From a virus (lineage: Duplodnaviria; Heunggongvirae; Uroviricota; Caudoviricetes): 64,000 nt of DNA. Below, piece after piece: positions 14,729 through 14,743 of the stretch (position 1 is the first letter of the stretch; each line of letters begins with the position of its first letter). The DNA lies in the IMG/VR virus record IMGVR_UViG_3300001336_000001, positions 42,836 through 106,835 of that record; one strand, 5' to 3'. A model generated the notes under the pieces. The model had not been told where the DNA came from. It did not search any database and was given only the letters and a program-made list of their open reading frames with translations. The position numbers were made by a program, and so were the translations under genes.

Positions 14729-14743
14729 TATATATAAATATTC
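14729..14743 (-). promoter_or_regulatory. TATATATAAATATTC promoter-like motif
   Basis: 19 nt upstream of the ATG at 14709. Confidence 0.45.

Follow-up and report, generated by a model that had tools for sequence, protein, structure and literature searches.

The late promoter of phage T4, TATAAATA, is read by gp55 together with gp33 and the sliding clamp. For phages of the Bacteroidota, promoters read by phage-encoded sigma factors are to our knowledge essentially uncharted. The sigma-A promoters of the Bacteroidota themselves carry TTTG at -33 and TAnnTTTG at -7. In Flavobacterium the -7 box spans -12 to -5 (PMC9723704). A further system of interest is the PeSL, a composite cassette of a terminator and an early promoter found in T4-type phages (PMC2839356, PMC4122927). 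Here we analyse a 15-mer, TATATATAAATATTC, repeated in 64,000 nucleotides of a virus of the Caudoviricetes (IMG/VR record IMGVR_UViG_3300001336_000001, positions 42,836 to 106,835; this whole stretch is called the window). A model which had seen only the letters of the window and its open reading frames (ORFs) had proposed the 15-mer as a candidate phage-specific promoter; we call this the sequence-only reading. Our analysis leads us to think, with moderate confidence, that the 15-mer is the -10-region core of a delayed promoter which depends on a phage sigma factor.

All genes of the window are oriented leftward, and in this direction the 15-mer reads GAATATTTATATATA. Seven of the eight sites before genes are copies of one repeated cassette which consists, from right to left, of a long hairpin, about 85 nt ending T-rich, a G-rich box, a phased A/T spacer, the 15-mer, 5-19 nt, and an ATG followed by the codons for a leader peptide. 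The sequence-only reading overlooked that the motif is nearly always a part of such a promoter and leader-peptide cassette with a conserved hairpin upstream.

This arrangement resembles the PeSLs in that a short conserved intergenic module of stem-loop and promoter is repeated many times in plastic regions where it flanks small variable ORFs, and in that both modules serve as homology patches for modular exchange. The unit is found at least seven times in the window and is present in about 60 IMG/VR viral contigs, where it stands before about 50 unrelated cargo families (50 clusters among 70 complete motif-preceded proteins). It differs from the PeSLs in that the promoter is not of the host early type, that the module extends into the ORF as a shared N-terminal peptide, that the hairpin, at 55-140 nt, exceeds theirs by far and has a base of conserved sequence, and that the phages here apparently infect Bacteroidota. 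With the T4 late promoter the element shares a single dominant A/T-only block in the -10 region, a phage sigma-like reader (if our reading is right), and a position before lysis genes and, by analogy only, before virion-packaged proteins. The T4 octamer itself is found only on the strand opposite the genes; unlike the situation in T4, the candidate sigma factor is an RpoS/RpoD-like protein of full length which includes region 4, and near -35 there is a G-rich box. The geometry relative to the start codons is that of the Bacteroidota sigma-A promoters, with an upstream box about 19 nt off and an octamer at -12 which begins with TA, whereas the sequences are different, TATATATA replacing TAnnTTTG and GGGTGG replacing TTTG. 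By sequence the element is not a host sigma-A, extracytoplasmic function (ECF) or T4 late promoter; it would function like a phage-sigma promoter and is organised like the PeSL cassettes (PMC4122927).

Occurrence of the 15-mer in the window

The exact 15-mer is found seven times, always on the + strand (2613, 13815, 14729, 15428, 16217, 17242 and 40814), and a copy with one mismatch lies on the same strand at 20723, before the endolysin gene. The proposal of a repeated 15-mer before eight leftward genes is borne out in this form, and the eight start codons named for it (2603, 13807, 14709, 15422, 16205, 17222, 20711 and 40794) all exist. The distance from the motif to the ATG is 5-19 nt (Table 1) and not 7-30 nt as had been stated. 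All eight sites are intergenic and co-oriented with the downstream gene. Copies with two mismatches lie at 35809 and at 59879, the latter inside a coding region. The scans of the phage's own genome covered the 64-kb window, in which there are 10 matches with at most two mismatches compared to 2.7 ± 1.75 in dinucleotide shuffles, and 0 of 100 shuffles reached 10. A 12-mer core, TATTTATATATA, occurs nine times, all in the leftward orientation, against 0.27 expected (the largest number in any shuffle was 3). The weaker sites which had been suggested at 35809 and 51203 are real as partial matches; their significance is doubtful. A 29-nt weight matrix gave no extra sites above 12 bits in the window.

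The endolysin gene is the sole gene in the window outside the cassettes which stands behind the core motif. Here the motif comes directly after a terminator-like hairpin with a T-run (20776-20749), and the 3' arm of this hairpin provides a GGTGGTG box. The motif copies of the cassettes likewise follow a structured region which ends in a U-rich stretch.

Conservation of the core in other viral contigs

A scan of IMG/VR with the pattern GAAA-N10-GAATATTTATATATA gave 33 loci, about 26 of which are true homologues of the cassette with matching flanks and ORFs opening with the leader. A non-circular set was obtained by choosing genes solely by a degenerate coding pattern for KFIATTIREYLNE. Among the 43 distinct genes found in this way, 18 are preceded by the exact 15-mer, 16 by a copy with one mismatch and 3 by a copy with two mismatches, and 6 have no motif; the motif thus stands before 37 of the 43 genes, 7-24 nt from the ATG. 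The mismatches in these 37 sites are mostly in positions 1-3 of the 15-mer. Positions 4-15 are 97-100% conserved, a figure inflated by the filter of at most two mismatches, and the unfiltered flanks are 35-97% conserved. The G-box GGGTGG, which some sites lack, is conserved to 65-86% and keeps a fixed distance of 13 nt from the 15-mer, on its upstream side; the A/T spacer between the two reads AAAWTTWAAAWTTT.

The core is also found with unrelated flanks, namely before the endolysin, before three GIY-YIG endonucleases and before a small acidic protein encoded after the sigma gene. Close relatives of the endolysin were not found in the viral contigs.

A positional and orientation bias is seen as well in a sample which was fetched by the sigma gene regardless of the motif (1.41 Mb of loci; ORFs of at least 60 aa). 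These loci have 22 copies of the core, of which 15 stand before an ORF in the sense direction, 4-34 nt upstream of it; the reverse complement gave 1 of 22, and 150 composition-matched permutations of the core gave a mean of 1.1 and a maximum of 9. A sharply defined core of 12 nt which can be found in metagenomes is a direct experimental handle.

The element as a probable promoter

The most economical reading of the motif is an initiation signal at the DNA level. The essential part of the promoter would be the 12-mer, and the full element of about 34 nt would be made up of the G-rich box at about -38 to -33, the phased A/T spacer and the invariant core. The last eight bases of the core, TATATATA, would be at -12 to -5, where the host sigma-A box sits. 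Transcription would start about 5 nt past the motif or at its last bases, and would give 5' untranslated regions (UTRs) of about 1-20 nt. Before the gene 14991..15422 the 15-mer is only 5 nt from the ATG, and the mRNA would for this reason be almost leaderless. The regulon would consist mainly of the small leader-cargo cassette genes plus the endolysin, and in relatives also of homing endonucleases.

A comparison with the host-type promoters of the window, TTTG-N19-20-TAnnTTTG, is informative. Fifteen of these are on the gene strand and 3 on the other strand, about 2 being found in shuffles. Their 3' ends are 4-26 nt before ATGs, which is the distance also kept by the last eight bases of the motif. 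It should be noted that three host-type promoters end only 4-5 nt before an ATG, which implies leaderless mRNAs. Most neighbouring genes, the RpoS/RpoD-like sigma gene among them, would be under promoters of this type. Near the eight motif genes no conserved host-type promoter was found. That the motif is without TAnnTTTG had been seen from the sequence and holds: where a sigma-A promoter has TAnnTTTG at -12 to -5 and TTTG about 19 nt further upstream, the element would have TATATATA at -12 to -5. A generic sigma-70 scan was uninformative in the A/T-rich window (65 matches, 70 expected). Two other readings of the motif region were dropped after inspection by eye, a sigma-54 promoter having unsuitable spacing and a dif-like palindrome a right flank which is not conserved.

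The endolysin site bears on whether the signal acts on DNA or on RNA. The terminator-like hairpin and T-run come directly before the motif, and a signal acting only on read-through RNA is therefore unlikely at this gene. The suggestion of a phage-specific promoter has survived all in silico tests; the eight sites are not independent, because seven share one cassette and their downstream ORFs have a common N-terminal peptide.

The proposed reader and time of expression

The two phage sigma genes named in the sequence-only reading were both recognised by Pfam and NCBIfam, and a role for a phage sigma factor, also suggested there, is plausible. In the mechanism we propose, the host RNA polymerase core would be redirected to the motif by a phage factor of the sigma-70 family, and the favoured reader, we infer, is the RpoS/RpoD-like sigma factor 11516..12391. 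Its gene is located two genes downstream of the main cassette array, and homologues with 34-42% identity lie beside cassettes in four other loci. A single-sequence search for close relatives of this sigma factor in viral contigs found none. The gene has a host-type promoter of its own, TTG-N20-TATCTTTG, so the protein would be made early.

ECF promoters have an AAC-type -35 and typically CGT in the -10 region (PMC9723704). There is no C or G in the 12-mer core; the lack of a CGT-containing -10 element makes the ECF-like sigma factor 23902..24453 the less likely reader.

The motif would define a delayed class of genes, middle or late. If a phage sigma factor is needed, expression from the motif would be delayed relative to the host-type promoters. 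This class may be the late one, as the sequence-only reading had suggested from the endolysin; the grounds are one endolysin and an analogy to the capsid-targeted proteins of T4.

The sigma gene is followed at once by a gene for a small acidic protein of high charge, both in the window (11109-11462, - strand) and in three other loci (L084:11447-11803, L114:10918-11352 and L136:10918-11370). This second gene is preceded by the core motif in the relatives and by a degenerate motif, TGATATTTATTATTA, in the window. The protein could be a partner or co-activator of the sigma factor.

Alternative explanations

Several points weigh against a phage-sigma promoter, which has been inferred from the sequence. 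About 75 of 80 real motif sites precede one gene family, so the recurrence largely reflects shared descent of a promoter-plus-leader module and not independent recruitment. From the DNA on record, which reaches 2.4 kb past the left edge of the window and does not include the structural genes, the motif cannot be demonstrated to head a general class of genes. The register of -10 and -35 is ambiguous. For an RpoD-like sigma factor one expects A at -11 and T at -7, and in the core only AATATT (positions 2-7) offers both; in an alternative register AATATT may serve as the -10 hexamer, and the start would then fall within the final bases of the motif. Finally, only about 10 of 80 sigma-centred loci (±10 kb) have the core followed by an ORF, about 7 of them being leader cassettes, and the link between motif and sigma factor is weak for this reason.

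The core could instead be a transcribed signal in the 5' UTR, either a site for a phage translational regulator or an element for stability or ribosome loading in a host without Shine-Dalgarno use, and the promoter would then have to be sought in the A/T-rich DNA immediately before it or in a host-type promoter farther away. The position of the motif, only 5-19 nt from the ATG, speaks for such a signal, and so does a TAnnTTTG-like octamer (TAATTTTG or TAAATTTG) which overlaps position 1 in two of the seven exact window sites and in a minority of sites elsewhere. A host-type start would there lie inside the core and the core would fall within the transcript, which is another point against a phage-sigma promoter. 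A complete host-type promoter is present 213 nt upstream of the gene 16821..17222, ahead of the hairpin, and the conserved G.U pairs of the hairpin indicate selection on the sense strand of the intergenic region. We regard this explanation as unlikely. The octamer has a proper -33 box at none of the window sites, is not conserved (variants TAAAATTG, TAAATCTG and TAATTCTG) and is absent at the endolysin, which has a terminator immediately upstream; the G-box keeps a fixed distance, and the spacing of motif and ATG, anywhere between 5 and 24 nt, is not what one would usually expect of a translational operator. Quite unlikely, in our judgement, is a promoter for a phage-encoded RNA polymerase which works without a sigma factor, be it single-subunit or divergent multisubunit as in some jumbo phages. 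Polymerases of this kind recognise an uninterrupted stretch which surrounds the start site, and one invariant block of 12-15 nt is typical of their promoters; the A/T-only block of the element has this form, and this again tells against a sigma-dependent promoter. Some sites, such as L042, L067 and the endolysin, do without the upstream conservation, many of the contigs with cassettes are 180-500 kb long, and three large ORFs of the window (797, 761 and 446 aa) are without a functional assignment. The window gave no match to a polymerase-like domain, however, and it has two sigma-70-family genes, one of them syntenic with the cassettes in several relatives.

A site for a DNA-binding protein unrelated to initiation, that is an operator or a simple recombination site at which the adjacent Xer-like recombinase would help to move cassettes, we consider very unlikely. 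It would account for a very similar string, TATYATATATA(A/C), beside the conserved TAAC junction which precedes the recombinase gene in the window and in 10 other loci, the recombinase being the most conserved neighbour of the cassettes. This string may, though, be a variant promoter of the recombinase gene. The homology between cassettes runs on past both sides of the 15-mer, so the motif is not the junction; the junctions map to TAAC at the base of the hairpin, and the motif is also found before genes far from any recombinase or hairpin (endolysin, GIY-YIG). One might also suppose that the motif has no function of its own and is conserved merely because it lies in a repeat which has recently been duplicated or gene-converted. 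In favour of this, seven of the eight sites are from a single cassette family, and the copies at 14729, 17242 and 40814 (repeat family D1) share 68-86% identity over 197 nt. The core is 97-100% conserved in contigs from many samples where adjacent positions are at 35-80%, it is present with unrelated flanks as well, and the leader codons differ mostly by synonymous changes, so the copies are old; a repeat of this kind is highly improbable as the explanation. Still less credence is due to the idea that TATAAATA, which is contained exactly in the + strand of the 15-mer, is a T4-type late promoter driving rightward antisense or non-coding transcription into the structured intergenic region. All genes are leftward, in 36 of 38 cases the leftward strand gives the better fold of the hairpin, whose invariant G.U pairs are on that strand too, and antisense copies of the core are found before an ORF in only 1 of 22 cases.

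Table 1. Coordinates of the elements, genes and hairpins discussed (positions in the window; L numbers stand for loci in other viral contigs)
Feature	Position	Strand	Remarks
Promoter-like element of gene 14110..14709	14729..14762	-	15-mer (14729-14743), A/T spacer and G-rich box (GGGTAAGAAATTAAAATTT upstream); 19 nt to ATG
Promoter-like element of gene 2187..2603	2613..2646	-	exact 15-mer, 9 nt to ATG
Promoter-like element of gene 13400..13807	13815..13848	-	exact 15-mer, 7 nt to ATG
Promoter-like element of gene 14991..15422	15428..15461	-	exact 15-mer, 5 nt to ATG
Promoter-like element of gene 15669..16205	16217..16250	-	exact 15-mer, 11 nt to ATG
Promoter-like element of gene 16821..17222	17242..17275	-	exact 15-mer, 19 nt to ATG, G-box GGGTGG
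Promoter-like element of gene 40315..40794	40814..40847	-	exact 15-mer, 19 nt to ATG, G-box GGGTGG
Endolysin element	20723..20776	-	variant TAATATTTATATATA, 12-mer core intact, 11 nt to ATG
Weak copy	35809..35823	-	ACATATTTATATATA, core intact; followed by only a 16-codon ORF, next gene 94 nt away
Weak copy	51203..51217	-	TGATATTTATATATG, overlaps GTG start
Endolysin gene	19932..20711	-	PG_binding_1 and Amidase_2; without leader peptide
RpoS/RpoD-like sigma factor	11516..12391	-	regions 2 and 4; RpoS model 200 bits
ECF-like sigma factor	23902..24453	-	Pfam/NCBIfam
Xer/IntI-like tyrosine recombinase	12472..13284	-	directly downstream of cassette array
Recombinase loci besides the window	L008, L016, L026, L030, L035, L044, L045, L062, L064, L090		
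Cassette gene, 199 aa	14110..14709	-	leader MELRKFIATTIREYLNE at 14659-14709; cargo without assignment
Cassette gene, 133 aa	16821..17222	-	leader MELRKFIATTIREYLNE at 17172-17222; ART-PolyVal ADP-ribosyltransferase domain (56 bits)
Cassette gene, 143 aa	14991..15422	-	leader MSKDIRKMIDKVKNFKQFINE at 15360-15422; Arr-ms-type ADP-ribosyltransferase domain (34.8 bits)
Cassette gene, 178 aa	15669..16205	-	leader MNKDMKLRKFIATTIREFLNE at 16143-16205; cargo without assignment
Cassette gene, 135 aa	13400..13807	-	leader MSKDIREMIDKVKNFKQLNE at 13748-13807; cargo without assignment; final cassette before recombinase gene
Cassette gene, 138 aa	2187..2603	-	leader MNDLRKFIKKTIREHLVE at 2550-2603; weak ParB_N-like match
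Cassette gene, 159 aa	40315..40794	-	leader MELRKFIATTIREYLNE at 40744-40794; only weak DpnI_C match
GIY-YIG homing-endonuclease-like genes after the 12-mer core	L044:2381-3127, L088:5279-5983, L113:568-1392		three unrelated contigs
Host-type promoters (examples)	57483-57453, 50093-50063, 48580-48549, 45131-45100, 39629-39599, 34088-34057	-	
Host-type promoters (examples, continued)	21359-21328, 17467-17436, 11073-11042, 7540-7509, 1225-1195	-	
Hairpin (TAAC...GTTA) upstream of 40814 element	40914..41037	-	
Hairpin upstream of 16217 element	16317..16440	-	
Hairpin upstream of 13815 element	13916..14026	-	
Hairpin upstream of 14729 element	14830..14917	-	compensated variant stem
Hairpin upstream of 15428 element	15530..15619	-	compensated variant stem
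Hairpin upstream of 2613 element	2665..2789	-	compensated variant stem
Further copy of the hairpin family	41460-41546	-	half copy near 3945-3975
RNA-repair kit genes	42920-43957, 45153-45953, 45957-47075, 48589-49506, 56305-57447		

Leader peptides and cargo proteins

Two related leader peptides, MELRKFIATTIREYLNE or MSKDIREMIDKVKNFKQFINE, open the seven cassette ORFs, and the consensus forms are M(E)LRKFIATTIREYLNE or MSKDIR(E/K)MIDKVKNFKQ(F)(I/L)NE. The leader is an amphipathic N-terminus of 17-21 residues which in most members ends in L/I/V-N-E, and directly beyond it the proteins are unrelated. The pairwise codon differences among the copies are mainly synonymous (422 against 126 non-synonymous) and include changes such as CGT/AGA and CTA/TTG; the leader copies must therefore be old and the peptide itself under selection. 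A leader profile searched against 5.8 billion proteins returned only short unnamed fragments. A match in a Dickeya jumbo phage which seemed to include the leader was rejected, as only the ADP-ribosyltransferase (ART) domain is in common.

Pfam gave assignments for a part of the cargo. Among 69 motif-preceded proteins there are 12 with ART-PolyVal, 2 with a GNAT acetyltransferase, 2 with DUF3990, and 1 each with an Arr-ms, a PARP-like and a GIY-YIG domain, and most of the 69 are without a Pfam match. The cargo of 2187..2603 has 78% homologues in four other contigs. The 70 proteins in 50 families, 12 of them with ART-PolyVal, make up a catalogue of proteins which may act in host takeover or against host defences. 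In this respect the constant module of promoter and leader may matter more than the promoter, being a tag by which dozens of otherwise unrecognisable small phage effector genes can be retrieved.

The closest described parallel to the leader is found in the T-even phages. The prohead protease of T4 cuts after L/I-x-E. The internal proteins of T-even phages and Alt carry an N-terminal capsid targeting sequence (PMC3012670, PMC5512222), and Alt of T4 is an ADP-ribosyltransferase which is made late, packaged and injected (PMC5512222). ART-PolyVal, the most frequent ART domain here, takes its definition from polyvalent proteins, for which injection together with the DNA is predicted. As in T-even phages, a short conserved N-terminal peptide ending hydrophobic-x-Glu (here L/I/V-N-E) is found on unrelated proteins, an ADP-ribosyltransferase is among the cargo as with Alt, and the genes cluster in a plastic locus. 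The leader differs in being longer (17-21 residues compared to about 10) and in being unrelated in sequence. We take the resemblance to a capsid targeting sequence as a lead only. Should the leader turn out to be a packaging signal, phages of the Bacteroidota would have in this locus their counterpart of the internal-protein locus of T-even phages.

A conserved 3' element is present right after the stop codons of cassettes (14045-14110, 14940-14990 and 13340-13399, - strand). It consists of GTG(T)GGTGGGA and then an A-rich run, AAAAAAAATAAAATAAAAAG, and is the complement of the T-rich run which immediately precedes the next promoter; because of this complementarity the whole intergenic region of a cassette may fold up as a single large structure. 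Ten other contigs share a 35-nt piece, located at 2156-2190 in the window, with 88-100% identity.

Hairpins, recombinase and a possible exchange of cassettes

Upstream of each of the seven cassette sites there are 200-250 nt of repeated non-coding DNA which include the hairpin. The hairpins of this family have a stem of up to about 40 bp with a conserved base, a small bulge, a conserved second stem and a variable tip. Read leftward they have the form ..GTAGCATTGCATATAAC-G-(~3 nt bulge)-GGGTGTAT..variable..ATACACC-TT-GTTATATGCAGTGC, and the conserved base is ..GCATATAAC / GTTATATGC... In 22 distinct copies 98.4% of the cells pair, and 15 of 25 pairs have changed on both sides (88 cells); 0 of 500 shuffles were as good, and slid controls paired to 35-54%. 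G.U pairs are conserved at three positions, and at one of these in 22 of 22 copies. The covariation, these G.U pairs and the better folding of the coding strand all argue that the hairpin is selected on the coding strand, as RNA (terminator, processing site or stabiliser) or as folded single-stranded DNA. At the gathering threshold Rfam recognised tRNAs only, and at a relaxed threshold a spurious miRNA hairpin; none of its families matched the hairpin. Hairpins of the family are also found without the promoter motif. Each cassette could be seen as an insulated unit of a structured hairpin with a U-rich stretch, a promoter, a short leader and an ORF.

Clusters of attC sites have been reported in virulent phages, including a Polaribacter phage (PMC9892861). 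Like integron arrays and clusters of attC sites lacking integrases (CALINs), the locus has co-oriented small ORFs separated by imperfect hairpins of variable length, a conserved hairpin base (..TAAC / GTTA..) with a small internal loop, a second conserved stem and a variable tip, and at the end of the array a tyrosine recombinase gene beside a half-site which ends in TAAC. It is unlike them in that the cassettes have a promoter of their own and a shared 5' sequence, that the folding strand is the coding strand, and that the recombinase is Xer-like. With TIGR02249 this protein scores 152 bits, in two stretches, compared to a cutoff of 265; the alignment with IntI4 (2a3v) ends at residue 182, the best match in the PDB is XerA, and the extra domain specific for IntI was not found in the recombinase.

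The recombinase gene is preceded by a conserved junction, ..CATAAC joined to TATATTATATATG (window 13285-13340). Each of the 11 recombinase genes examined is preceded by the conserved outer arm of the hairpin, which reaches as far as TAAC and there continues into TATYATATATA(A/C) instead of the stem. Homologues with 59-75% identity lie downstream of cassettes, always co-oriented, in 9 loci selected by the cassette compared to 2 of 80 loci selected by the sigma gene. The TAAC boundary also delimits a replaced segment between the related contigs L053 and L083, and the outer arm has 79 distinct occurrences after which come many different hairpins or none. The hairpins and the syntenic recombinase suggest a possible integron-like, site-specific exchange of cassettes. 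The locus looks like an attC/attI arrangement; however, traits which define an integron are lacking, and a role in RNA explains the covariation of the hairpin equally well as an attC-like role. If the hairpins were sites for the Xer-like recombinase, they would form a self-contained system for cassette exchange in lytic phages.

The most far-reaching reading would be that the 15-mer marks a portable adaptor for expression and delivery. A phage-sigma promoter and a capsid-targeting leader would tag hypervariable enzymes (ADP-ribosyltransferases, acetyltransferases) which would be packaged late and injected to take over the next host, and the cassettes would be exchanged in an integron-like manner via the TAAC...GTTA hairpins by the Xer-like recombinase, in a widespread clade of large uncultivated Bacteroidota phages. 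Taken as a whole this is speculative and unlikely.

Probable host and genetic environment

The window has a G+C content of about 30% and at least 19 tRNA genes, and it also encodes a set of genes for RNA repair and nucleotide metabolism. The host appears to be a member of the Bacteroidota, probably of the Flavobacteriia, judging from a gene with a type IX secretion sorting domain and from the many host-type promoters. The closest cultured relatives are the Cellulophaga phages phi4:1 and phi17:2 and the Maribacter phage Panino, with a protein identity of only about 43%, the value found for the A1-like DNA transfer protein and its counterparts in these phages. The first 50 kb of phi4:1 offered no useful parallel, and among 50,697 phage records there was no match to 10 kb of the sequence (megablast) or to the cassette (blastn).

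The type IX sorting domain (Por_Secre_tail, 46 bits) is at the C-terminus of a phage protein of 536 aa (34105-35715, - strand), which suggests that this protein is exported via the secretion system of the host. The tRNA genes form two clusters (19-22 genes; 27463-29148 and 51292-53319, - strand), and these are accompanied by a full RNA-repair kit of RNA ligases 1 and 2, a polynucleotide kinase-like protein, a CCA-adding enzyme and a Thg1-like enzyme. A gene for a TnpB-type RNA-guided endonuclease (IS200/IS605 family, 415 bits) is present at 29868-31049 (- strand); a second one (L034:1982-3271) lies just past the left edge of the window, and TnpB homologues are found near cassettes in L001, L022 and L066. 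Finally, a direct repeat of 170 nt (1243-1412 and 40084-40253) is 94% identical between its two copies, which lie 39 kb apart and each adjoin a cassette region.

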